Shown piece after piece: positions 12,523 through 32,000 of a stretch of 32,000 nucleotides of DNA. Every line of letters begins with the position of its first letter. Position 1 is the stretch's first letter. Location: NCBI GenBank assembly GCA_004284765.1, contig NQJD01000008.1, forward strand, positions 30,001 to 62,000, given 5' to 3'. This stretch comes from Candidatus Electronema aureum. Lineage in GTDB: Bacteria; Desulfobacterota; Desulfobulbia; Desulfobulbales; Desulfobulbaceae. A program made the translations under genes and the position numbers. The notes beneath the pieces were generated by a model. The model saw only the letters and a program-made list of their open reading frames with translations, was not told where the DNA came from and ran no database searches.

Positions 12523-12657
12523 ATGGAATATTGGCAAGAGATCAATAAGAAATTAATTCCTTGGATTGACACTTCGCTGAACAAGACAGTGCTTGATCTT
12601 TTTGCGGGCAGCGGCGGTCTTTCTCTTGGTTCTGAGGTAAACGCTTTAACATTATGA
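12523..12657 (+). pseudogene. N-terminal 44-codon remnant of a SAM-dependent (probably cytosine-5) DNA methyltransferase
   Basis: The fragment is MEYWQEINKKLIPWIDTSLNKTVLDLFAGSGGLSLGSEVNALTL*. DLFAGSGGLSLG is methyltransferase motif I. The reading frame ends 10 codons later, and its stop overlaps the next gene's ATG (ATGA). Confidence 0.5.
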
Positions 12658-13691
12658 ATAAAAGATATTCACGAACGGAAAGAATAGGAGTTAATGCGGT
12701 TGAAAGGATAGTGATTCAAGAATTAGGCTGGATATTCAGAGATCAGCCAATAGTTGACGTTGGCGTTGATGCAATAATTGAGCAGTGTGAAAATGGAAAT
12801 CCGACAGGAAAATTTATAGCTATTCAGATAAAATGCGGAGCGGGAAATTTCCATATTTCAGAGAAAAAGATAACTTATTACGATGTTTCGCATATTCATT
12901 ACCACTATTGGTTAGGACTTAATATTCCTATAATTTTAGTAGCACATCTACCAGATTCAGAAGAAACATACTGGCAGCACATCTGCAAAGATAATTTTAA
13001 GAAAACAGACACGAGATGGAAACTTGAAATACCAAAAAAACAGAGATTCGGAAAAGAATCAAAAGGAAAATTAACTCGTATCCTTTCAGAGAAAGGAAAA
13101 AGGAATTTTATTTTTGATTTATATTCAGGAAACATTGATGTTGAAAATGACGGTTTTGATTTTTTTGAAAAAGTAAATTGCATTGCTGAATCATCAATTT
13201 GTTTTGAAAATATCAGAAAGATATTTAATGATGCAGGAGAAAGAATAAATAAGTTTCACAGGGAAATATCGACAAGCAGTCATGATTACAAAATATATAT
13301 CAATGGCCTGTCGAGAGACTTTAATATCTATTCCAAAAGACTTGAATTTGAAATTGATATTTTTTCAAAATTATACCCGGAAGGATTCTTTGCTTATGAG
13401 CAATTTATTTTATTTAATTATTTAGTAAATAACGATACTGATCTGGTCAGAAATGCTGTTTATGAGCTAAACGAAACATCTAACGCTACTGATGAATTAA
13501 TAAAAGTCATATCATCATTAGAACATGCCATATCAGGATTTCATGAAGAATTTAAACCAATAGTAAATTGTTTTTTCGATATTTTAGGATTTATTCTCTT
13601 GGAATTATCTGAAGCGAGAGATATGACATCAGCACTGCTTCATAGAATTAACGAATATGCCCCCCATCACCAGCCTCCGCCAATATCTTGA
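12654..13691 (+). CDS. DUF4365-like (PD-(D/E)XK restriction-endonuclease fold) N-terminal domain fused to an unknown ~200-aa helical domain
   Basis: RIGVNAVERIVIQELGWIFRDQPIVDVGVDAIIEQ...KFIAIQIKCG fits the D...E/QxK nuclease core and my memory of the DUF4365 consensus. The gene is strongly AT-rich. Its last ~11 codons read into the duplicated ubiD 5' fragment. Confidence 0.7.
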   Translation: MNKRYSRTERIGVNAVERIVIQELGWIFRDQPIVDVGVDAIIEQCENGNPTGKFIAIQIKCGAGNFHISEKKITYYDVSHIHYHYWLGLNIPIILVAHLPDSEETYWQHICKDNFKKTDTRWKLEIPKKQRFGKESKGKLTRILSEKGKRNFIFDLYSGNIDVENDGFDFFEKVNCIAESSICFENIRKIFNDAGERINKFHREISTSSHDYKIYINGLSRDFNIYSKRLEFEIDIFSKLYPEGFFAYEQFILFNYLVNNDTDLVRNAVYELNETSNATDELIKVISSLEHAISGFHEEFKPIVNCFFDILGFILLELSEARDMTSALLHRINEYAPHHQPPPIS

Positions 13692-20374: not shown

Positions 20375-23317
20375 GTGAGCGAACAGGAAAACTCGTCCTA
20401 CGGGGCGGATCAGATCAAGGTTCTTGACGGGCTTGAGGCGGTACGCAAACGTCCGTCCATGTATATCGGCAACACGGCGGAAGAGGGGCTGCATCACCTG
20501 ATTTATGAGGTGGTTGATAACTCCATCGACGAGGCATTGGCCGGCTGCTGTGACCGGATCAGGGTGATCCTCCTCGAAGACGGCTCCTGCTCAGTCGAAG
20601 ACAACGGACGCGGCATTCCGGTGGACAAGCATCCGACCGAAAACATGACCGCTCTTGAGCTGGTGCTGACCACGCTGCACGCGGGCGGCAAGTTCGATCA
20701 TTCGTCCTACAAGGTTTCCGGCGGCCTGCACGGCGTGGGTGTGTCAGTGGTCAATGCGCTCTCCACCCACGTGACCGCTGAGGTGCGGCGCAACGGCAAG
20801 CTCTACCGGCAGACTTTCTCCTACGGCGCGAAGACCAGCGAGCTGGAAGTGGTCGGCACCAGCGAGCACACCGGCACCACCATCACCTTCAAGCCAGACC
20901 CGGAGATATTCACCCAGACCATTGCTTTCAAGTATGAGATCGTCCTCAACCGGTTGCGCGAGCTGGCCTTCCTCAACCGGGGCATTCACATTTCTCTGAA
21001 GGACGAGCAGAGCGGGGCTGAAGACCTCTTTCATTACGAGGGCGGCGTGGTTGAATACGTCGAGCACCTTAACCGCAACCGCACCCCGATTCATCCCCAG
21101 CCGATCTTTCTTGAAGGCGAGCAGGAGCAGGTGCAGGTTGAGGTCTGTCTGCAATACGTTGACAGCTACACCGAGCGGCTGGCCTCCTTTGTCAACAACA
21201 TCAACACGCGCGAAGGCGGCTCGCATGTGGCAGGTTTCCGCGCCGCGCTGACCAAGTGCATCAACAAGTACGCCACCGACGACATTGTGCCCAAGCACAT
21301 GAAGGAGAAGATGGAGGGCGACGATGTGCGCGAGGGGCTGACTGCGATCATTTCGGTGCGGGTGCCGAATCCGCAGTTTGAGGGTCAGACCAAGACCAAG
21401 CTGGGCAACTCCGAGGTGAAGGGCATTGTCGCTTCCATCTGCACCGAGCAGCTTGGTGATTATTTGGAGCGCAACCCGCAGGTGGCGCGGCAGATACTCA
21501 GCAAGGCGGTTGAGGCGGCGCGGGCCAGAGAAGCGGCGCGGAAGGCGCGGGATTTGTCACGCAAGAAGGACGGCATTTCTCTGCTGATGGCAGGCAAGCT
21601 GGCAGAATGCCAGTCGAAGAATCCGGCGGAGCGGGAGCTGTTTCTCGTGGAGGGCGATTCGGCGGGCGGCTGCTTTTCTGGCGAGACCAAAGTGGCTTTG
21701 GCTGATGGCCGCGCCTTGAGCTTTTTGGAGCTGATTGCCGAGCAGGAACAGGGGAAGGAGCATTTCTGCTACACCATTCAAGCTGACGGCAAGATTGGTC
21801 TGGAGCAAATTCTGCATCCGCGCCTGACTAAAAGGCAGCAAGAGGTTGTGCAAGTAACACTCGACAACGGCGAGCAGATTGTCTGCACACCCGATCACCG
21901 CTTCCTGCTCCGTGACGGGACGTATTGCCCGGCGGAACAGTTAGAGGCAGGCACCTCACTGATGCCGCTGTACCGCAAGCTGCCCGGCTCTGGCTGCGAA
22001 ATGATCTGGGAACCAAATGCTGGTCGCTGGAGATTCTTTGCTGATCAAGACGAATCAGCTTGGCAAGATGCGGAAGAAGAGGCTTTAGAAGCTGCTGCCG
22101 ACAACCACCGCGTTGTCTCCGTGGAAAAGCTGACCGAGCGTATCGATGTGTATGACATCGAAGTGCCGAACACGCACAACTTCGCTTTAGCCAGCGGCGT
22201 ATTTGTCCACAACAGTGCCAAGCAAGGCCGCGACCGCTCCATCCAAGCTATCCTGCCGTTGCGCGGCAAGATCATGAATGTGGAGAAAGCCCGCTTTGAC
22301 AAGATACTTGACTCTGAGGAGATCAAGCAGCTTATCGCCGCAATGGGCACCGGCATCGGGCGGGAGGAGTTTGACGCGAGCAAGCTGCGTTACCACAAGA
22401 TCATCATCATGACCGACGCGGACGTGGACGGCGCGCATATCCGAACTCTGCTCCTCACCTTCTTCTACCGCCAGATGCTGCCGCTGGTCGAGCAAGGCTA
22501 TGTTTATATCGGCCAGCCGCCGCTGTACCGCTTAGGCCGGGGCAAGAAGGAGCAGTATTTCCTCAATGAGGACGCGCTGAACAGCCACCTTTACGACCAA
22601 GCGGCGCAGTTTGTGCAAGTCCGCTTGGAGAACGGCAGCGTGCTGGCCGGGCAAGAGTTAGTCAGTTTGTTGAAGAAGCTCACCCTGTTCGAGCGCATCA
22701 GCACCTTCTTGGAACGGATGAACATTCAGGAGCAGCTCACCCTCTTCCTGCTTGAAAACGATGTGCATTCTGCCGATCAGTTTAAGGAGGAGGCGTTCCT
22801 GCACGGGCTGCTGGATAAGCTCGCCAGCATTGATGCGGTCACGAGCGGCATCCGCGTCTGCGCGACCCGGCCCAGTTGCTTTGAGGCGGAGGCGGCCTTT
22901 CAAGGCTTGGCCCACACCCGCGCGGTCATCGGGCCGCACATCCCGCTGATTCCCGAATATCGCCACGCTCTTGAGCTGCATCCTGCAATCAGGCAGTTCC
23001 TCGGCAGCGGCTTCACGGTCATCAAGGGCGAGGAGAAGGAGATTCCGGCGAAGAACTGGCGCGAGCTGATCCGCGTGGTGCGCGAGGAAACCTTCAAGGG
23101 CAGCCACTTGCAGCGCTACAAGGGTTTGGGCGAGATGAACCCGGAGCAGCTTTGGGAAACGACCATGAATCCGGCCAACCGCACCCTGCTGCGCGTCAGG
23201 ATTGAGGATGCTGAGGCTGCCGATGATCTTTTTGTCACCCTGATGGGCGATAAGGTGGAGCCACGGCGCGAGTTTATCCAGAATCATGCGCTGGAGGTTT
23301 CGGAGCTGGATGTGTGA
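20375..23317 (+). CDS. gyrB: DNA gyrase subunit B, interrupted by an in-frame mini-intein
   Basis: GTG start. Motifs present are YGADQIKVLDGLEAVRKRPSMYIG, YEVVDNSIDEA, GLHGVG, EGDSAGG|...|SAKQGRDR, PLRGKIMNVE, DADVDGAHI and YKGLGEMNPEQLWETTM. The ORF is 980 aa, or 799 aa without the intein. Confidence 0.95.
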   Translation: MSEQENSSYGADQIKVLDGLEAVRKRPSMYIGNTAEEGLHHLIYEVVDNSIDEALAGCCDRIRVILLEDGSCSVEDNGRGIPVDKHPTENMTALELVLTTLHAGGKFDHSSYKVSGGLHGVGVSVVNALSTHVTAEVRRNGKLYRQTFSYGAKTSELEVVGTSEHTGTTITFKPDPEIFTQTIAFKYEIVLNRLRELAFLNRGIHISLKDEQSGAEDLFHYEGGVVEYVEHLNRNRTPIHPQPIFLEGEQEQVQVEVCLQYVDSYTERLASFVNNINTREGGSHVAGFRAALTKCINKYATDDIVPKHMKEKMEGDDVREGLTAIISVRVPNPQFEGQTKTKLGNSEVKGIVASICTEQLGDYLERNPQVARQILSKAVEAARAREAARKARDLSRKKDGISLLMAGKLAECQSKNPAERELFLVEGDSAGGCFSGETKVALADGRALSFLELIAEQEQGKEHFCYTIQADGKIGLEQILHPRLTKRQQEVVQVTLDNGEQIVCTPDHRFLLRDGTYCPAEQLEAGTSLMPLYRKLPGSGCEMIWEPNAGRWRFFADQDESAWQDAEEEALEAAADNHRVVSVEKLTERIDVYDIEVPNTHNFALASGVFVHNSAKQGRDRSIQAILPLRGKIMNVEKARFDKILDSEEIKQLIAAMGTGIGREEFDASKLRYHKIIIMTDADVDGAHIRTLLLTFFYRQMLPLVEQGYVYIGQPPLYRLGRGKKEQYFLNEDALNSHLYDQAAQFVQVRLENGSVLAGQELVSLLKKLTLFERISTFLERMNIQEQLTLFLLENDVHSADQFKEEAFLHGLLDKLASIDAVTSGIRVCATRPSCFEAEAAFQGLAHTRAVIGPHIPLIPEYRHALELHPAIRQFLGSGFTVIKGEEKEIPAKNWRELIRVVREETFKGSHLQRYKGLGEMNPEQLWETTMNPANRTLLRVRIEDAEAADDLFVTLMGDKVEPRREFIQNHALEVSELDV
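21671..22213 (+). mobile_element. 181-codon mini-intein in the GyrB Toprim motif
   Basis: It begins with CFSGETKV (block A Cys), contains TPDHRF (block B TxxH), and ends VYDIEVPNTHNFALASGVFVHN followed by the +1 Ser. Removing it restores EGDSAGG-SAKQGRDR exactly. There is no room for a homing endonuclease domain. Confidence 0.9.
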
Positions 23318-23632: not shown

Positions 23633-23778
23633 CCAACCTTGATGCAGGCACATCCGAATCAGTTGCGCGTCCAAGGGTAGGTTGGCGGTGAGGAAGTTTT
23701 GCAGCAAAGTTAAATAAGGCCAGATAATGGTATCTGCCCCCTATTATTTGTTCTTTCCACAGAAGAATGGAGGATGCC

Positions 23779-24408
23779 ATGAACGTGTCGAAGAATTATC
23801 TTTTTTTAGTTTTCCTGTTTGTAGTCAGCTTGCCGCTCTCTGGCTGCAACCAAGAAAATAAAAAACTTCAAGCAGAGAATTCAGATCTGCGTGTTAAGTT
23901 GTACCTGCTTGAGACTGAACTGACCAAACAACCCCGTAATCTGGACAGAAAAGATGCTGAAGAGATTTTGAATAGATATCTATCTACTCCTTCTGTGAAG
24001 AGAATAAAGTTTATGGCAAGCGGATTTGAGCTTGCAAAGACTAATGGTGTAATATCTAAAAATTCCGGAAAGGAATGGCCAGAATATCCTTGGATATTAT
24101 CCGAGAAAGGGAAAATGATTTTTGGAAGTATCGTAAATGGAGAAATTATAGAAAGTATAATAATTACACAAATCGAAGGAAATTACGTCTTCCGTCCAGA
24201 GATAGCAGAAAAAGTTGTGTCTATCAAAGGAATCAGCGATGGCCCATACCGAGGAACTAAGGTGGTGCAGGTTATAACAACCTACGTGCTTCCCTCTGAC
24301 GTTAATGAACAGGAAATTGCCAAATATATCTATATGGCAGAAAGAAAAGATGCGATACTTCGCCGATACGATGATGGCTGGCGCGTGGAAGAAATAAAGA
24401 GATATTGA
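23779..24408 (+). CDS. hypothetical lipoprotein
   Basis: It has a signal peptide with the lipobox LPLSGC (MNVSKNYLFLVFLFVVSLPLSGCNQ) and a GGAGGA Shine-Dalgarno sequence upstream. The gene is AT-rich. I recognise no family. Confidence 0.6.
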   Translation: MNVSKNYLFLVFLFVVSLPLSGCNQENKKLQAENSDLRVKLYLLETELTKQPRNLDRKDAEEILNRYLSTPSVKRIKFMASGFELAKTNGVISKNSGKEWPEYPWILSEKGKMIFGSIVNGEIIESIIITQIEGNYVFRPEIAEKVVSIKGISDGPYRGTKVVQVITTYVLPSDVNEQEIAKYIYMAERKDAILRRYDDGWRVEEIKRY

Positions 24409-24421
24409 ACACCGTACAATA

Positions 24422-25288
24422 ATGGAAAAACTCATCCGCTTTGATTGGGCCATCAAAAAGCTCCTGCGCGACAAGGCCAACTTTTCCGTGCTGGAAGGCT
24501 TTCTCAGCGCAGTGCTGAATGAAGACGTGACCGTGGTCAATCTCTTGGAGAGCGAAAGCAATCAAGAGGACAGCTTCGACAAATTCAACCGCGTTGATCT
24601 GCTGGTTGAAAACAGCAAGAAAGAGCTGCTGCTGATTGAAGTGCAAGTGAAATCGGAATACGACTTCTTCCATCGTATCGCCTACGGTGTCGCCAAACTG
24701 ATGAGCGAATACTTGGAAAAAGGGCAGCCGTACCGCGAAATCAAAAAGATCATCTCGGTCAGCATCACCTATTTCAGCCTTGGCATTGGCACGGATTATC
24801 TCTATTACGGCTCGACTAATTTTGTCGGCCTGCATACCGGCGACATCCTCGCGCTGACCGAGAAACAGCAGGAGCTGTTCGGCATCAGCGAAGTGCGGAA
24901 GATTTTCCCTGAGCACTATCTCATCCGGGTGGAGGATTTTCCTGACAAAGTGCAGTCTGCGCTCGATGAATGGATTTACATGCTGAAGCACAGCGAGGTG
25001 CGGCCTGACTTCAGAGCCAAGCATATTCAAGAAGCCTCAGCGCGGCTGCGGATTATGAATCTGGACGAGCCGCAGCGGAAAGCCTATGATGAATACATGC
25101 AGAATGTCTCGTATCAGCAGTCCATGCTCTGGTCTTCCCGTGAAGAGGGTAAACACGAGGAGAAAATTGCCATTGCCAGAAATCTGCTGGCGCATGGCAT
25201 TGCGCTGGAGGTTATCGCCGCCAGCACAGGCTTGTCCAGCGGGGAGATAGCCACTTTGCAAAAAGGAGAAGACCATGCAGTTCCTTGA
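24422..25288 (+). CDS. Rpn-family / PD-(D/E)XK (PDDEXK_2, putative-transposase-type) nuclease
   Basis: FNRVDLLVENSKKELLLIEVQVK gives the D...ExQ/K nuclease core. The family-typical C-terminal tail is IAIARNLLAHGIALEVIAASTGLS. Confidence 0.75.
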   Translation: MEKLIRFDWAIKKLLRDKANFSVLEGFLSAVLNEDVTVVNLLESESNQEDSFDKFNRVDLLVENSKKELLLIEVQVKSEYDFFHRIAYGVAKLMSEYLEKGQPYREIKKIISVSITYFSLGIGTDYLYYGSTNFVGLHTGDILALTEKQQELFGISEVRKIFPEHYLIRVEDFPDKVQSALDEWIYMLKHSEVRPDFRAKHIQEASARLRIMNLDEPQRKAYDEYMQNVSYQQSMLWSSREEGKHEEKIAIARNLLAHGIALEVIAASTGLSSGEIATLQKGEDHAVP

Positions 25289-26177
25289 CGTGAAAACCGA
25301 CTTCGCCTTCAAGCGGGTCTTTGGCAGCGAGCAGTCAAAAGGCATCCTGATTGACTTCCTCAACGCCATCATTGACTTCGGTGATGAGAGAATCACCGAT
25401 CTGACCATCGTTGATCCCTATCAAGTACCGCCGCTGAAAGGCATGAAGGACAGCTATGTTGATGTGAAGGCGGTGCTGTCTAATCGCGCCAAAGTCATCA
25501 TCGAGATGCAGGTGCTCAATGTCGAAGGCTTCGAGAAGCGGGTGCTGTATAATGCCGCAAAGCTCTACTCCTCACAGCTCAGACGCTCGCAGCAGTACGC
25601 GGGACTGGAGCCGGTCATCGCCCTGACCATCACCGACTTCGAGATGTTCAAGGATTTCGACAAGGTGATTTCCTATTGGAACCTGCGTGAGAAGGAGCAG
25701 CTTGTTCAGTACAGCGACGAGATCGAGCTGATCTTTGTTGAGCTGCCTAAGTTCAAGAAAGGCGAGGACGAGCTGCACACGGTCATGGACAAATGGATTT
25801 ACTTCATCAAAAACGCAGGCGCGCTCGACTTTATTCCCAAGACCTTCACCGAGCCGCCGCTGCTTGAAGCCTTTGATCTGGCCAACACCGCCGCCCTGAG
25901 CGAGGAGGAGCTGGAAGTGCAGTTCAAACGCCGGGACTTCATCATGCTCCAGCAGGGTGCTTTGATGAAGGCGGAGAAGGACGGGTTGGCGAAGGGTATG
26001 GAAAAGGGACTGCAAGAGGGAATGGAGGCTGGCATTAAGGAAGGTGTGAAAGAAGGAAAGCGCGAGGCAAAACTTGCCATCGCCCGCAGCCTGCTGGCGC
26101 ATGGCATTACGCTGGAGGTCATCGCTGCCAGCACAGGCTTGTCTGGCGATGAGCTGGCCAGCTTGCAGGAACAATAA
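25275..26177 (+). CDS. Rpn-family recombination-promoting nuclease / putative transposase (second divergent paralogue)
   Basis: MQFLDVKTDFAFKRVFG..., SYVDVKAV...VIIEMQV core and a repeated E/K/G-rich segment are followed by the tail LAIARSLLAHGITLEVIAASTGLS. It overlaps the upstream paralogue by 14 nt. Confidence 0.8.
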   Translation: MQFLDVKTDFAFKRVFGSEQSKGILIDFLNAIIDFGDERITDLTIVDPYQVPPLKGMKDSYVDVKAVLSNRAKVIIEMQVLNVEGFEKRVLYNAAKLYSSQLRRSQQYAGLEPVIALTITDFEMFKDFDKVISYWNLREKEQLVQYSDEIELIFVELPKFKKGEDELHTVMDKWIYFIKNAGALDFIPKTFTEPPLLEAFDLANTAALSEEELEVQFKRRDFIMLQQGALMKAEKDGLAKGMEKGLQEGMEAGIKEGVKEGKREAKLAIARSLLAHGITLEVIAASTGLSGDELASLQEQ

Positions 26178-26199
26178 CAACAACCAAGGGGGTGTTAAG

Positions 26200-26607
26200 A
26201 TGAGTCTGATAACTTGGGACGACAGCTTGAGCGTCAATGTGGCGGAGATCGACAGGCAGCACCAGAAGCTGGTGGCGATGATCAACGAGCTACATGACGC
26301 GATGAAAAGCGGCAAAGGAAAAGACGTGATGGGCAGAATAATCAGCGGCCTGATCAGCTACACCGACAGTCATTTTAAAGTGGAAGAGAAGTACTTCGCT
26401 CAGTTTAAATACCCTAATTCAGCGGCGCACATGAAGGAGCACACCGCCTTTGTCAAGAAGGTCTCTGAGTTCCACAGCGACTTTGAAGCAGGCCGTCTGA
26501 CGGTATCCATTGACACCCTCTACTTCCTGCGCGACTGGCTGCAAGGCCACATCAAGGGCACGGACAAGAAGTACAGCAGCTTCTTCCATGAAAATGGTCT
26601 GCGGTAA
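26200..26607 (+). CDS. bacteriohemerythrin-like protein
   Basis: MSLITWDDSLSVNVAEIDRQHQKL..., HFKVEEKYF, HMKEHTAF and DWLQGHIKGTDKKY give the His/Glu/Asp iron ligand pattern. AAGGGGG lies upstream of the ATG at 26200. Confidence 0.85.
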   Translation: MSLITWDDSLSVNVAEIDRQHQKLVAMINELHDAMKSGKGKDVMGRIISGLISYTDSHFKVEEKYFAQFKYPNSAAHMKEHTAFVKKVSEFHSDFEAGRLTVSIDTLYFLRDWLQGHIKGTDKKYSSFFHENGLR

Positions 26608-26664: not shown

Positions 26665-29184
<2,520 letters not shown>

Positions 29185-29249: not shown

Positions 29250-29561
29250 TCAAAGCATTCCCGCCTCGTCGCAGTCAGGGCCTGTCAGACACTCCACCCA
29301 GCGCACGCGCCCGGCCTTGGGGCCGTCTGCCTTGTCCAGCTCTTTGTCCCGCCGTGCGCATTCTTCCGTCCGCACTGTCTCCCGTTCCGCTTCACCCTCA
29401 AACTTCAGCATCCTGCCGACAAAAGCCTCAGCCCGCTGCGCTGTCACGCAGTTCGCATAGCCTGATTTCTCCATCGGATTCATGCCGAGGACAAAGAACA
29501 TGAACAGCGCCATCCCTGCGGCCAGCACCAGAACAATTCCTGCGGTCTTCAAGAGTTTCAT
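29250..29561 (-). CDS. hypothetical single-TM protein with four Cys in the soluble part
   Basis: The N-terminal anchor is MKLLKTAGIVLVLAAGMALFMFFVL. It lies 23 nt downstream of the SLATT-like gene on the same strand. Confidence 0.5.
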   Translation of the reverse strand: MKLLKTAGIVLVLAAGMALFMFFVLGMNPMEKSGYANCVTAQRAEAFVGRMLKFEGEAERETVRTEECARRDKELDKADGPKAGRVRWVECLTGPDCDEAGML

Positions 29562-29584
29562 AGCATCTCAGCTTTAGTTGAATG

Positions 29585-30124
29585 TTATGCGCCGCTGTCT
29601 CGCTTTTGCTCTGCGACGTTCCCGGTGTCCTTCGGGGCAGCTTGGTTCTCAGTATCTGTCTTGACGGTCTGGCTCCACTTCTGACTGGATGCGCTGAGAA
29701 CAGCTTGCAGCTGGGCGAAACATTCGTCAAGCTGATCATTAGTAAGACCATCCGGCCCGCAGTATTCGAGTTTGCGGCGCATGTCGCAGAGCATATGGAA
29801 GATTCTCCGCTCAAGCATCCACAGTTCGGACGGCTTGTGGATAGTTTCCACAGCGACGACGACATTGGCTGCGGTCGTGACAGCAACGATGGCGAAACCG
29901 ACAGCGTCATGGTGGTCGGGGAGAACAAGGCTCGCGCTGCCAAGGACAGTGGCCAGAGCTGTCAGTCCTAAAGCGGCGTAGTGGAGCCAACGGTACAGAC
30001 GCTTGTGACCCGTGGACTCATTGCCAAAATGAGTGATCTCTTTCTCGATCTGACAGAGCAGACGCTTGCGCTTGTCAGTTATGCTGCCGCAGTCTTCGCT
30101 GTCTTTACAGTCTTTCTTTTCCAT
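29585..30124 (-). CDS. two-TM protein, SLATT/DUF4231-like (tentative)
   Basis: The ATG at 30124 has GAGAGGGGG 7 nt upstream and lies downstream of the predicted promoter. A TM hairpin (WLHYAALGLTALATVLGSASLVL / VGFAIVAVTTAANVVVAVETI) is followed by an ELWMLERRIFHMLCDMRRKLEY helix. Confidence 0.55.
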   Translation of the reverse strand: MEKKDCKDSEDCGSITDKRKRLLCQIEKEITHFGNESTGHKRLYRWLHYAALGLTALATVLGSASLVLPDHHDAVGFAIVAVTTAANVVVAVETIHKPSELWMLERRIFHMLCDMRRKLEYCGPDGLTNDQLDECFAQLQAVLSASSQKWSQTVKTDTENQAAPKDTGNVAEQKRDSGA

Positions 30125-30145
30125 GTCGTCGCCCCCTCTCGTTTC

Positions 30146-30173
30146 ATTATCACTCAAGACCGGCTGTTGTCAA
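30146..30173 (-). promoter_or_regulatory. sigma70-type promoter for the SLATT-like operon
   Basis: On the minus strand: TTGACA (30173-30168), a 16-nt spacer, then GATAAT (30151-30146). Confidence 0.5.
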
Positions 30174-30253
30174 ACTGAATCCTCAGCAGAGACGATGGTT
30201 GCCCGACCTGAGCAGGCGGTTCTGTCCCCAGCAGCCCGCAGGCACCCTCTGCC

Positions 30254-30364
30254 GGAGACACTACGGTGTCTCCAGTGGAGATACTAGGGTCACTCAGGGG
30301 GAGACACTATAGTGTCTCGGTGGGAGATACCGTAGTGTCTCTGACGGAGATACCATAGTGTCTC
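30254..30364. repeat. 5 x 23-bp tandem palindromic operator-like units, GGAGAYAC-N4-GTGTCTC
   Basis: Units start at 30254, 30277, 30300, 30323 and 30346, an exact 23-bp period. The centres are TACG, TAGG, TATA, CGTA and CATA. Unit 2 has a degenerate right arm, GTCACTC. Confidence 0.9.
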
Positions 30365-30372
30365 TTTTTGCG

Positions 30373-30386
30373 TCTCCAGCTGGAGA
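30373..30386. promoter_or_regulatory. 14-bp perfect palindrome TCTCCAGCTGGAGA next to the array
   Basis: It is built from the outer part of the array half-site (GGAGA / TCTCC) in the opposite relative orientation. Confidence 0.6.
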
Positions 30387-30427
30387 GGTTGGGGGACAGA
30401 TCCACTCTCGCCAGCCCGTTTTTCCAG

Positions 30428-30456
30428 TTGACAAAGACAGATATGCTGAGTAATAA
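30428..30456 (+). promoter_or_regulatory. sigma70-type promoter for the 2TM-TPR / caspase-like operon
   Basis: TTGACA (30428-30433), a 17-nt spacer, then TAATAA (30451-30456). Confidence 0.45.
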
Positions 30457-30511
30457 ATGTCTTTTCAGCTGTCATGCGCTGTATGTCATAATGAAAGATC
30501 ACTGAGGCGTT

Positions 30512-31201
30512 ATGGATCATCTCGTAGTAGTGGGGTTTCTCGTCTATGCGGCACTGTTTCGCTTGGCGATTATCGCCACAGGCGTTGCAGCTATCGTCCT
30601 CGGATACAAGCTGTTCTTGCGCGGCGTAATGGGCGAAGGCGGGACAAACGTCAACGCTGAGGCAGGGCCGATCAAGTTGACGCTTCATAACGCCGGGCCA
30701 GGCGGAGTCTTTGCGCTGTTCGGCGCGGGTATTATCATAGTCATGCTTTCGCAGGGCAGCCCGGAACTCTTGATGAAGGATATGTCTCAGCTGACTGTAT
30801 CTCCTCCTGATATGAACCAAAAGCCTGCGCATCAACAAGCATCTCAGCCTGAAAAAAGAGATGTGAGTACTGCTCTTCAAATACGCGGCGAAAATAACGA
30901 TGACAAAGAGTGGAGCAAGCTAAATGAAAATGTAACCATGTCTGAAGCAGCAGAACCGTTGAGCAGCATTGCTCGTGTTTGGCTACAAGAAAAACGTACA
31001 GGTGAAGCTGTGGCAATGGCAAGATTGGCAGCATTTTATGGTTCGGAGAAGGATAAAGCAAACTATCATGCGCTGCTCGGTGAAGCGCTTTTTGAAAATG
31101 GCGATAAACAGAATGCTGTTAGTGCAATGCAAAAGGCGGCAGAGCGCGATCCACTTTATCGTGCGGCTTTAGCTCGAATGCAAGAACGTTTAGCAGAATG
31201 A
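30512..31201 (+). CDS. membrane protein with two TM segments and a TPR-like C-terminal region
   Basis: The hydrophobic segments are VVVGFLVYAALFRLAIIATGVAAIVLGY and GGVFALFGAGIIIVML. The C-terminal ALLGEALFENGDKQNAVSAMQKAAERDP fits the TPR consensus. Confidence 0.65.
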   Translation: MDHLVVVGFLVYAALFRLAIIATGVAAIVLGYKLFLRGVMGEGGTNVNAEAGPIKLTLHNAGPGGVFALFGAGIIIVMLSQGSPELLMKDMSQLTVSPPDMNQKPAHQQASQPEKRDVSTALQIRGENNDDKEWSKLNENVTMSEAAEPLSSIARVWLQEKRTGEAVAMARLAAFYGSEKDKANYHALLGEALFENGDKQNAVSAMQKAAERDPLYRAALARMQERLAE

Positions 31202-31215
31202 GAGGATTAGAGAAA

Positions 31216-32000
31216 ATGGGTTGGTATAAGCAAAGGCAAGTCTTGTCGGTTCGGCTCGTGCTGCTTTTCGTTTTCCTTATGACAACAGCGGCAGTAAAAG
31301 AAGAGGCTGTCGCATCAAGTTTTGGTCGCTATCATGCTGTGGTGATTGGAAACCAAAACTATCAATATCTTGAGAAGTTGAACACACCTCTGAACGATGC
31401 ACGGGATATTGCACGGATATTGGAACAGCAGTACGATTTCAACGTGACGTTATTGCTGGATAAGAAGCGCGACGAGACAATGCGTTCCTTGTCAGAATTG
31501 CGTAGAACTATGGCCAAAGAAGATAATTTACTTATCTATTATGCTGGTCATGGAATTTTAGATGAAGATACTGATGTCGGCTACTGGCAGCCGATTGATG
31601 CTGACGATAGTGTTGTTAATTGGATTCCCTTTACTGATCTGATCACCTTGCTCAAAGGTCTTCAGGCGAACCATATTTTAGTAATTGCGGATTCCTGCTT
31701 CGCCGGTGCTCTTCAGATGACCAGAAACTCTGGGGCGGCTCTTGATTACGGCTCAGAGAGTTGGTTGCGTCGAATGCGTGAAAAGAAATCACGTACTGCT
31801 CTCACATCAGGCGGGATCGAAGATGTACTTGATGGAGGAGGTGGCAATCACTCGATTTTTGCAAAGGCTATCATTGATACATTACGAGAGAATAATACGA
31901 TATTGGATGGGCAAAGTCTATTTGATCAGGTCAAGCTGTTAGTTGTTAACAAGGCTGCTCAAACTCCAAACTATGATCCTATACGACTGACTGGCCACGA
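31216..32000 (+). CDS. caspase-fold (peptidase C14) protein with an N-terminal signal/anchor, 3' end outside window
   Basis: It is not in the ORF track because there is no stop before the window end. I translated it by hand and found no stop in 261 codons. Motifs are HAVVIGNQNYQYLEKLNTPLNDARDIA, YYAGHG (catalytic His) and LVIADSCFAG (catalytic Cys). The N-terminus is VLSVRLVLLFVFLMTTAAV. Confidence 0.85.
   Translation, partial: MGWYKQRQVLSVRLVLLFVFLMTTAAVKEEAVASSFGRYHAVVIGNQNYQYLEKLNTPLNDARDIARILEQQYDFNVTLLLDKKRDETMRSLSELRRTMAKEDNLLIYYAGHGILDEDTDVGYWQPIDADDSVVNWIPFTDLITLLKGLQANHILVIADSCFAGALQMTRNSGAALDYGSESWLRRMREKKSRTALTSGGIEDVLDGGGGNHSIFAKAIIDTLRENNTILDGQSLFDQVKLLVVNKAAQTPNYDPIRLTGH

Follow-up and report, generated by a model that had tools for sequence, protein, structure and literature searches.

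The region at positions 29250–32000 of a 32,000-nt stretch of the genome of Candidatus Electronema aureum (this whole stretch is referred to as the window, and coordinates are positions in it) carries two divergent gene units, one for a small SLATT-type membrane protein and one for a membrane TPR protein and an exported caspase-fold protease, with a phased array of 23-bp palindromes between them. An earlier note had taken the four genes and the array as one candidate conflict or envelope system with a shared control region. Our comparison across genomes makes it likely that three separate things, the SLATT unit, the array and the caspase operon, lie side by side here and do not form one system. 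The divergent units are found apart in related genomes, both in the seven other loci of the caspase pair and in 23 of 24 other SLATT loci, and the array, far from being a shared control region, is dispersed beside unrelated genes and missing at two caspase operons (L006 and L040; contigs and loci used for comparison are designated by L and a number). Judged by these gene neighbourhoods, an obligate SLATT–caspase system is excluded.

The gene layout and the promoters

Ca. Electronema aureum is a freshwater cable bacterium of the Desulfobulbaceae whose closed genome has been published (PMC10030654); its proteins and those of the window agree at 100% identity. The features of the region are the following, with lengths in amino acids (aa), TM standing for transmembrane and ORF for open reading frame:

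29250–29561, minus strand: 103-aa orphan protein with an N-terminal TM/signal segment and four Cys, an ORF 23 nt downstream of the SLATT gene
29585–30124, minus strand: stand-alone SLATT_1 protein, 179 aa from an ATG start (190 aa from an upstream TTG), identified by an NCBIfam match
30146–30173, minus strand: SLATT promoter TTGACA-16-GATAAT, with 11 of 12 consensus matches
30254–30364, no strand assigned: array of five units which combine an imperfect palindrome of 18 bp, GAGnnAC-N4-GTnnCTC, with a linker of 5 bp
30365–30427, plus strand: conserved sequence on the right of the array, TTTTTGC..CAGCTGGAGAGGTTGGGGGACAG.TCC.CTCTCGCCAGCCCGTTTTT, from an alignment of the window, L007, L008 and L034
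30428–30456, plus strand: caspase-operon promoter TTGACA-17-TAATAA, read from the sequence, the scanner having given no call there
30512–31201, plus strand: 2TM-TPR protein of 229 aa with an N-terminal 2TM domain (about residues 1–85), a disordered linker and a three-repeat TPR-like tail
31216–32000, plus strand: first 261 codons of a 433-aa Peptidase_C14 caspase, identified by a Pfam match, with the full length given by L001

This layout agrees with the earlier description of two minus-strand ORFs of 179 and 103 aa and of a plus-strand ORF of 229 aa, separated by 14 nt (stop codon at 31199–31201, ATG at 31216) from a caspase ORF which runs off the window. The region adjoins gyrA (26665–29184), as had been stated, and its plus-strand genes are indeed richer in AT than this flank (GC 0.45–0.51 versus 0.61–0.63 in gyrA). 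ORF and domain inspection revealed no NTPase, cyclase or reverse transcriptase in the region, again as had been reported, and we agree that no named system has this gene set.

A probable envelope operon built on a constant membrane protein and an exported caspase

The protease matches the Pfam family PF00656 (Peptidase_C14) with 81.6–83.3 bits against a cut-off of 21.4 and contains a catalytic dyad of His112 in YYAGHG (31549–31551) and Cys161 in ADSCFAG (31696–31698), so that the proposed signal-bearing caspase-fold protease with an intact dyad is confirmed. Its gene was read beyond the 3' end of the window from overlapping short-read Logan contigs (L001–L005); the complete protein of 433 aa was recovered in L001, followed by a lipoprotein gene, and the contigs stop within the 27-nt repeat of the latter. 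The full-length protein starts with a Sec signal peptide and ends with a helical-repeat region, located outside the window, for which no Pfam match was obtained. Among solved structures, MALT1 paracaspase, metacaspase-4 and GSU0716 come closest. An N-terminal signal peptide is present in all seven orthologues and paralogues examined, and the dyad motifs are kept in six of seven relatives, the Cys motif being missed in L037 by regular-expression search. Within the wider clade sharing about 50% identity in the catalytic domain, the C-termini comprise FGE-sulfatase, SH3, peptidoglycan-binding, LysM, Amidase_3, Sel1, TPR, ankyrin and other domains.

The 229-aa protein encoded upstream had been described as a two-TM protein with a TPR-like tail, with which the profile search (TPR_2, E = 1.4e-4), the AlphaFold2 (AF2) model (helices at residues 129–228 with a predicted local distance difference test score, pLDDT, above 90) and the best Foldseek matches (consensus TPR and YbgF TPR) agree. 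The complete protein has 35 detectable relatives, mostly from Desulfobulbaceae. Its 2TM domain alone retrieves 719 cluster representatives (E ≤ 1e-3), almost all of 200–300 aa with the domain at the N-terminus, and 85 of 134 representatives scanned gave TPR matches and no other Pfam domain type. The domain follows the motif FRLAII..G...IVLGYKLF.RG ... NA.PG..FALFGA...ML.QG.PE with the invariant residues Y12, R17, G24, G31, L34, F35, G64, F67, G71, M78 and P84, and it was matched by no Pfam or NCBIfam model. The possibility that it is itself SLATT-like was considered and rejected (hhalign probability 0.1%). Lys and Arg residues amount to 1.74 per sequence after TM1 compared to 0.15 before TM1 and 0.12 after TM2. 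By the positive-inside rule, this clustering after TM1 predicts a periplasmic TPR tail, on the same side of the membrane as the exported caspase.

The association of both genes was followed over eight pair loci (the window, L006, L007, L008, L040, L036, L037 and L039), including full-length orthologues of 49–82% identity which were traced to contigs from the caspase side. In all eight loci the 2TM-TPR gene is followed by a Peptidase_C14 gene with a signal peptide, and in the relatives examined the next gene starts 0–17 nt downstream. The upstream context changes from locus to locus: an atp operon in L006 (Ca. Electrothrix laxa), an MNT/HepT pair in L007, rnpB in L008 and cysS in L040. Each of these four loci continues from the 2TM-TPR and caspase genes into two lipoprotein genes. 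The remaining three (L036, L037 and L039) contain distant 2TM-TPR relatives of 31–41% identity and lie on long contigs in housekeeping contexts. The caspase C-termini of these three and of a paralogue-like copy carry SH3_3 (with an FGE-sulfatase gene following), VWA, FGE-sulfatase or no domain. No SLATT gene was detected in L006, L007, L008 and L040 or beside the core pair in L036, L037 and L039. Thus, the link of the caspase/TPR pair to the minus-strand genes is not sustained, as the pair belongs to a widespread family found in ordinary housekeeping neighbourhoods. As far as these contexts can tell, the core pair appears to be a widespread two-gene module so far without a name, to which cable bacteria add two lipoproteins; the 2TM-TPR family comprises hundreds of sequence clusters, and a caspase lies immediately downstream in every context examined.

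Pairwise identities differ strongly between the genes of the operon. Between the window and L008 they are 94% for the 2TM-TPR protein, 60% for the caspase and 57% for the lipoprotein, and between the window and L007 85%, 82% and 96%, respectively. The contrast between a 94%-identical partner and a 60%-identical caspase therefore indicates that the module is mosaic around a constant 5' component, which suggests recombination near the gene junction. The first lipoprotein gene after the caspase contains at least 5–8 tandem repeats of 27 nt (9 aa), reading GIGE(N/K)GGVT in Electronema, at these positions (strand not given):

L001, 2416–2557: tandem 27-nt repeats of the lipoprotein gene
L007, 3819–4012: tandem 27-nt repeats of the lipoprotein gene
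L006, 11523–11743: tandem 27-nt repeats of the lipoprotein gene

Some further peculiarities of the relatives were recorded. In L040 (6768–8016) two ORFs take the place of the caspase gene, a catalytic one of 324 aa and one of 82 aa matching the C-terminal helical repeat, which is either a frameshift or a natural split. In L008 an AT-rich insertion of about 300 bp (about 685–990) with the terminal inverted repeats CCTAATGTGCAACTC and GAGTTGCACATTAGG, which looks like a miniature inverted-repeat transposable element (MITE), lies between the TTGACA promoter and the start codon of the 2TM-TPR gene. Downstream of the caspase operon of L006 (13021–15686) there are three tandem paralogues of 287, 294 and 280 aa, 91–97% identical and starting with MRIANPIYDVVFKYLMEDRES, for which no Pfam match was obtained at E ≤ 0.01.

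The plus-strand unit would thus represent the beginning of an envelope operon of four genes which cable bacteria have in common. Observed are the pairing of the genes, their export signals, an intact dyad and the C-terminal variability, and on this basis we propose a first scenario for its function: the membrane-anchored TPR protein might physically interact with the exported caspase and dock or gate it on the outer, periplasmic side of the inner membrane, the caspase might be directed to its target or to a location at the cell wall by its variable C-terminal domain, and the two lipoproteins of cable bacteria might be substrates or partners. In this topology the operon could serve either envelope surveillance and conflict or envelope maintenance. 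Bacterial caspase homologues are largely without assigned functions and regulators, and a fixed membrane partner offers a concrete handle on them. Cable-bacterium filaments have a common periplasm, and dead "ghost" cells form in them. With its conservation in both Electronema and Electrothrix, the operon for an envelope caspase makes a plausible candidate for a role in envelope remodelling or cell death. The presence of caspase-domain genes in cable bacteria has been mentioned in the ghost-cell paper, where their function is called unknown (PMC12163305).

A stand-alone SLATT gene with a lineage-specific neighbour

The minus-strand 179-aa protein matches the NCBIfam model NF033634 (SLATT_1) over positions 5–131 of 132 with 51.8 bits (cut-off 41, E = 7.4e-14), and all 17 relatives of its subfamily match the same model. 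The assignment to SLATT in the earlier note therefore stands with respect to NCBIfam, whereas both Pfam families stayed below threshold (PF18181 SLATT_1, 14.3 versus 26.3; PF14015 DUF4231, 18.5 versus 24.7). In UniRef the protein is labelled as SMODS and SLOG-associating 2TM effector domain protein. It has two hydrophobic segments, whose hydropathy windows have their centres near residues 58–60 and 81–87, and after them the helix KPSELWMLERR, which is the most conserved motif of the family. The AF2 model, calculated from a shallow alignment, shows helices at 18–67, 69–94, 98–122 and 129–161 with a mean pLDDT of 65, which is consistent with a 2TM hairpin preceded by an N-terminal helix and followed by two C-terminal ones. 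Sequence searches found no solved structure. From the family names, and from what PMC7159879 says of the effectors concerned, SLATT proteins are taken as predicted membrane-perturbing (pore-type) effectors.

The 103-aa neighbour has a single N-terminal hydrophobic segment and its Cys residues at positions 38, 68, 91 and 97 (C38, C68, C91, C97), and it gave no matches in Pfam, NCBIfam and PADLOC. Its 90% cluster consists of three members, all E. aureum-type, and by tblastn no homologue adjoins any other SLATT relative. The gene is probably co-transcribed with the SLATT gene. In L010, which contains the closest SLATT homologue (64% identity), the SLATT promoter and the 5' untranslated region are conserved, and a terminator lies directly 3' of the SLATT gene. 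The minus-strand unit would accordingly consist of a SLATT_1 gene which stands alone under a strong sigma-70 promoter of its own, and downstream of it a gene for a lineage-specific Cys protein that is exported or sits in the membrane.

When genomes were scanned with the alignment of the family, 21 genomic loci of the SLATT subfamily emerged, which span Acidobacteriota, several proteobacterial orders, Planctomycetota (Brocadia), Ignavibacteria, Bacteroidota and Lentisphaerae; viral contigs contained no SLATT relatives. The Pfam census of 112 flanking proteins and the clustering of neighbours disclosed no recurrence beyond local synteny, with Patatin seen three times, Nudix twice and an amidase-like protein twice. 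Homologues of Peptidase_C14, the 2TM-TPR protein and the 103-aa protein were not found by tblastn within 10 kb of these loci. No SMODS, SLOG, TIR, GTPase or similar signal partner lies beside the SLATT gene of the window, and none recurs at the 21 loci. A hidden Markov model built from 120 close caspase homologues produced no matches among the ORFs of the SLATT loci and also missed a divergent caspase in L009 (see below); the search was therefore broadened by tblastn, a motif scan and the Pfam census. According to this survey the subfamily appears to be inherited as a single gene for which a fixed partner is absent, and its control would therefore not be encoded next door.

Three local observations accompany the survey. 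Patatin-like phospholipase genes occur within one to three genes of SLATT in three of the 21 loci (L014, 8293–9942; L029, 7432–9456; L032, 3561–6251). L014 and L032 have in common an amidase-like gene of 268 aa immediately downstream of SLATT. In L015 (6936–6996) three perfect tandem copies of a 20-bp sequence, TCCGCTCAGCGAACGGCTGT, which is unrelated to the 23-bp palindromes, precede a SLATT homologue from Methylococcaceae by about 60 bp.

A dispersed family of phased palindromes

The array between the two units has the exact 23-bp period and the five units described before, and four of them lie within three mismatches of GAGACACTATAGTGTCTC, compared to zero expected from 100 shuffles. The two perfect TTGACA boxes are also placed roughly symmetrically about it as claimed, the –35 boxes being 80 bp (minus strand) and 63 bp (plus strand) away from its ends. 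The plus-strand promoter (TTGACA at 30428–30433, TAATAA at 30451–30456) is kept in L007, in L008 and in the array-less L040.

Homologous arrays of 6–7 units were found in L007, L008, L033, L034 and L035, with 7 units in L007 and L008, where they lie upstream of the same caspase-operon promoter. The array is missing upstream of the caspase operons of L006 and L040, despite the promoter being retained in L040. A scan of JGI metagenomes for two adjacent units led only to the three further arrays of L033, L034 and L035. Their neighbours are unrelated to either unit: in L033 the array sits at the 3' terminus of a gene of the TIR/beta-helix type; in L034 it has a PIN toxin gene on one side and, on the other, a NADAR/PRTase-CE pair in convergent orientation, and it supplies the last ca. 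30 codons of the NADAR ORF; in L035 it is flanked by one DUF2281-like and one TIR-like gene. The arrays of L007 and L008 adjoin HepT of the MNT/HepT pair and rnpB, respectively. The right flank of ca. 63 bp is common to the window, L007, L008 and the unrelated locus L034, and is reduced to its promoter-proximal third in the array-less L040. Among SLATT relatives, 23-bp palindromic arrays are present upstream of those in the window and in L010 only. No array was found in viral contigs, and a phage or mobile origin is not supported. We conclude from this distribution that the array is presumably one copy of a dispersed phased-palindrome family confined to Electronema-like genomes.

All 38 units of the six arrays are phased at exactly 23 bp with no indel, and G2, A3, A7, T14 and T18 are invariant. 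The inner arm positions 5/16 and 6/15 vary, in five units on both sides with pairing kept (GAGACAC/GTGTCTC to GAGTCAC/GTGACTC) and more often on a single side, with 13 A-A and 10 non-pairing combinations. For a reading of the units as RNA or single-stranded DNA hairpins these counts are mixed, five compensatory changes standing against 13 A-A mismatches at one position. Most likely, the array is either a multimeric protein-binding element or a selfish repeat element, and not an operator dedicated to this locus, and its influence on the two flanking promoters would be incidental at most.

Of these two possibilities, a selfish or structural repeat of the REP/BIME (repetitive extragenic palindrome/bacterial interspersed mosaic element) or MITE kind, whose hairpins act as terminators or stabilise mRNA and which has nothing to do with the regulation of either unit, is a tentative reading which we hold at less than even probability. 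The dispersal of the family with copy numbers of 5–7 units, the location at gene 3' ends in L007, L033, L034 and L035 and the pairing-preserving changes on both sides in five units are in line with it, as is the last unit of the window array, for which, taken with the adjoining T-run, an intrinsic terminator of the plus strand is predicted. Assemblies also break inside the array. Short-read Logan contigs of this strain end within it from both directions, presumably because a multi-copy sequence breaks de Bruijn assembly, and the array family may thus explain assembly breaks in these genomes. However, a third of the units have one or two central mismatches, neither a transposase nor a RAYT-like gene is seen beside any copy, Rfam offers no match (zero gathering-level matches in the window, with only chance miRNA-like matches for the array), and the family is represented by only three further copies in the metagenome scan and by none in viral contigs.

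Alternatively, the array might be an operator or upstream activating sequence for a dimeric protein which oligomerises on 5–7 phased sites and controls a regulon of Electronema conflict genes, so that the two units of the window would be co-regulated without being co-inherited. The strict phasing would be expected of such a site, and the invariance of the outer GAG..AC/GT..CTC beside uncompensated variation in the linkers and at 5/16 and 6/15 fits recognition by a protein better than a hairpin. Moreover, the array is placed 63–80 bp upstream of –35 boxes in the window, L007 and L008, an analogue with another half-site (GAGCAA-N6-TTGCTC) precedes the SLATT promoter of L010, and every neighbour seen is a toxin- or defence-type gene or a caspase operon. 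Nevertheless, the arrays of L033, L034 and L035 occupy the 3' ends of convergent genes and not positions upstream of promoters, the one inside the end of the NADAR ORF behaves like an insertion, and no candidate regulator was found for the only six arrays seen. We therefore regard the operator reading as rather unlikely.

A bolder version of it would make all arrays operators of a single Electronema regulator over suicide or conflict genes (SLATT, the caspase operon, TIR, PIN, HepT and NADAR), with the juxtaposition of SLATT and caspase, echoed in L009, as part of a cell-death circuit. We consider this quite improbable; if true, such a circuit could underlie the formation of ghost cells or the fragmentation of filaments in cable bacteria.

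A separate observation concerns the surroundings of the arrays in L033 (3445–3790) and L035 (660–700), where diverged gene-end remnants ("...RGNKE*") flank the element or follow a different TIR-like C-terminal domain, which hints at a cassette-like replacement of C-terminal regions.

One system or three neighbours

The strongest form of a functional connection would be that the SLATT, 103-aa, 2TM-TPR and caspase proteins constitute one conflict or programmed-cell-death system, co-regulated via the array, in which e.g. the exported caspase or the membrane TPR protein as a sensor would trigger the SLATT pore. The local geometry, with divergent units and two strong promoters 63–80 bp from a single array, invites this view, and both SLATT proteins and caspases belong to the repertoire of conflict-system effectors enriched in multicellular bacteria (PMC7159879). 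In L009, in addition, a SLATT homologue of 49% identity comes immediately after a caspase gene. This caspase is, however, of a different subtype, characterised by DCCHSGG; the units of the window do not co-occur in the other pair and SLATT loci counted at the outset; the array is tied consistently to neither of them and also stands beside unrelated genes; and the caspase is exported, while the soluble parts of the SLATT protein are not obviously periplasmic. A single system of this kind is, in our judgement, highly improbable. The neighbourhoods of the pair look housekeeping-like, and PADLOC finds a generic caspase only.

Several observations weigh against the preferred reading of three independent neighbours or against parts of it. 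In L009, the SLATT gene (819–1319) follows the Peptidase_C14 gene (2–700) by 118 bp in the same direction; this caspase is represented by its C-terminal part only (28.2 bits versus a cut-off of 21.4) on a short GC-rich metagenome contig. Together with the window, a caspase neighbour is thus present at two of 25 SLATT loci, which is above naive chance, and a loose SLATT–caspase association may be retained as a minor possibility. The different 5 x 23-bp array of L010 (205–325), with its own half-site, takes the same position upstream of a SLATT promoter, and such arrays may be real regulatory modules on both kinds of genes. The survey of the caspase pair covers eight contexts of several hundred 2TM-TPR clusters, and the positive-inside rule is the sole basis for orienting the TPR tail to the periplasm. 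With these points taken into account, we still favour three separate neighbours. The four-gene "system" would then be an accident of position and unsuited as a template for the mining of defence systems.

Other features of the window

Outside the region a few features were recorded. The gyrB gene (20375–23317, plus strand) encodes 980 aa including an intein (Intein_splicing, residues 452–613) just before the Toprim domain. The gap of ca. 3.3 kb between gyrB and gyrA (23767–26607) contains a gene for a 213-aa protein of no family, two tandem Rpn-type PDDEXK_2/HTH_Rpn_C genes (24422–25288 and 25275–26177) and a hemerythrin gene (about 26200–26607). At 12654–13691 (plus strand) a 345-aa DUF4365 protein is encoded in a sharp low-GC island (0.34 versus ca. 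0.53 in the flanks), which suggests a recent acquisition.

Comparison with known systems

The 179-aa protein shares with the SLATT_1 family (NF033634, PF18181; related to DUF4231) the match over the full length of the model, the 2TM hairpin between helices and the small size (147–179 aa). As a difference, the gene of the window and its relatives stand alone in varied neighbourhoods without a SMODS, SLOG, TIR, GTPase or other nucleotide-signal partner.

The array resembles REP/BIME elements and phased operator or iteron arrays in that short imperfect palindromes are arranged in tandem in intergenic positions, in multiple copies and variable numbers, and with terminator-like properties. It differs by its strict 23-bp period, the lack of alternating orientation, an apparently very low copy number, its restriction to Electronema-like genomes and no RAYT or Rep gene having been seen, and from iterons also by the palindromic nature of its units.

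For the caspase, PADLOC offers a match to its generic "caspase" model (34.6 bits) and none for the other three proteins. Asplund-Samuelsson et al. 2012 (PMC3501461) catalogued prokaryotic metacaspases (orthocaspases) which are secreted or anchored in the membrane and carry accessory domains; among them are similar architectures, with Peptidase_C14 after an N-terminal TM or signal segment and with C-terminal FGE-sulfatase, TPR, Sel1 or peptidoglycan-binding domains, often encoded in operons. However, that survey singles out no conserved 2TM-TPR partner upstream, and the obligatory pairing found here in eight of eight loci is not described in the metacaspase and EACC1 literature compared.

The closest parallel is the two-gene EACC1–caspase system ("System 4" of Kaur, Burroughs, Iyer & Aravind 2020, eLife; PMC7159879), in which the gene for a small constant membrane protein precedes that for a caspase whose C-terminus varies, and which is enriched in multicellular bacteria. 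As in the pair described here, the product of the 5' gene of that system is a small, conserved protein of the membrane whose TM helix is rich in Gly, that of the 3' gene has its caspase domain at the N-terminus and a highly variable region behind it (FGE-sulfatase/FGS, vWA or superstructure-forming repeats), and the host is multicellular; over the eight loci of the present pair the C-terminus likewise changes between helical repeats, SH3_3, VWA and FGE-sulfatase. The differences are equally clear. The 5' protein of the window has two TM helices and a TPR tail and is not EACC1; searches of Pfam and NCBIfam gave no match other than TPR at E ≤ 1, with the presence of an EACC1 model in either library unconfirmed. 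The caspase matches NF047832 only partially and with 74.9 bits versus a cut-off of 140, it has a Sec signal peptide and would act outside the cytoplasm, and the contexts of the 2TM-TPR/caspase pair look vertically inherited and housekeeping-like rather than island-like. Judged from these architectures, the pair would resemble the EACC1–caspase system in its logic without being a member of it, and would extend the proposed principle of a constant membrane component plus a variable caspase to the periplasm.

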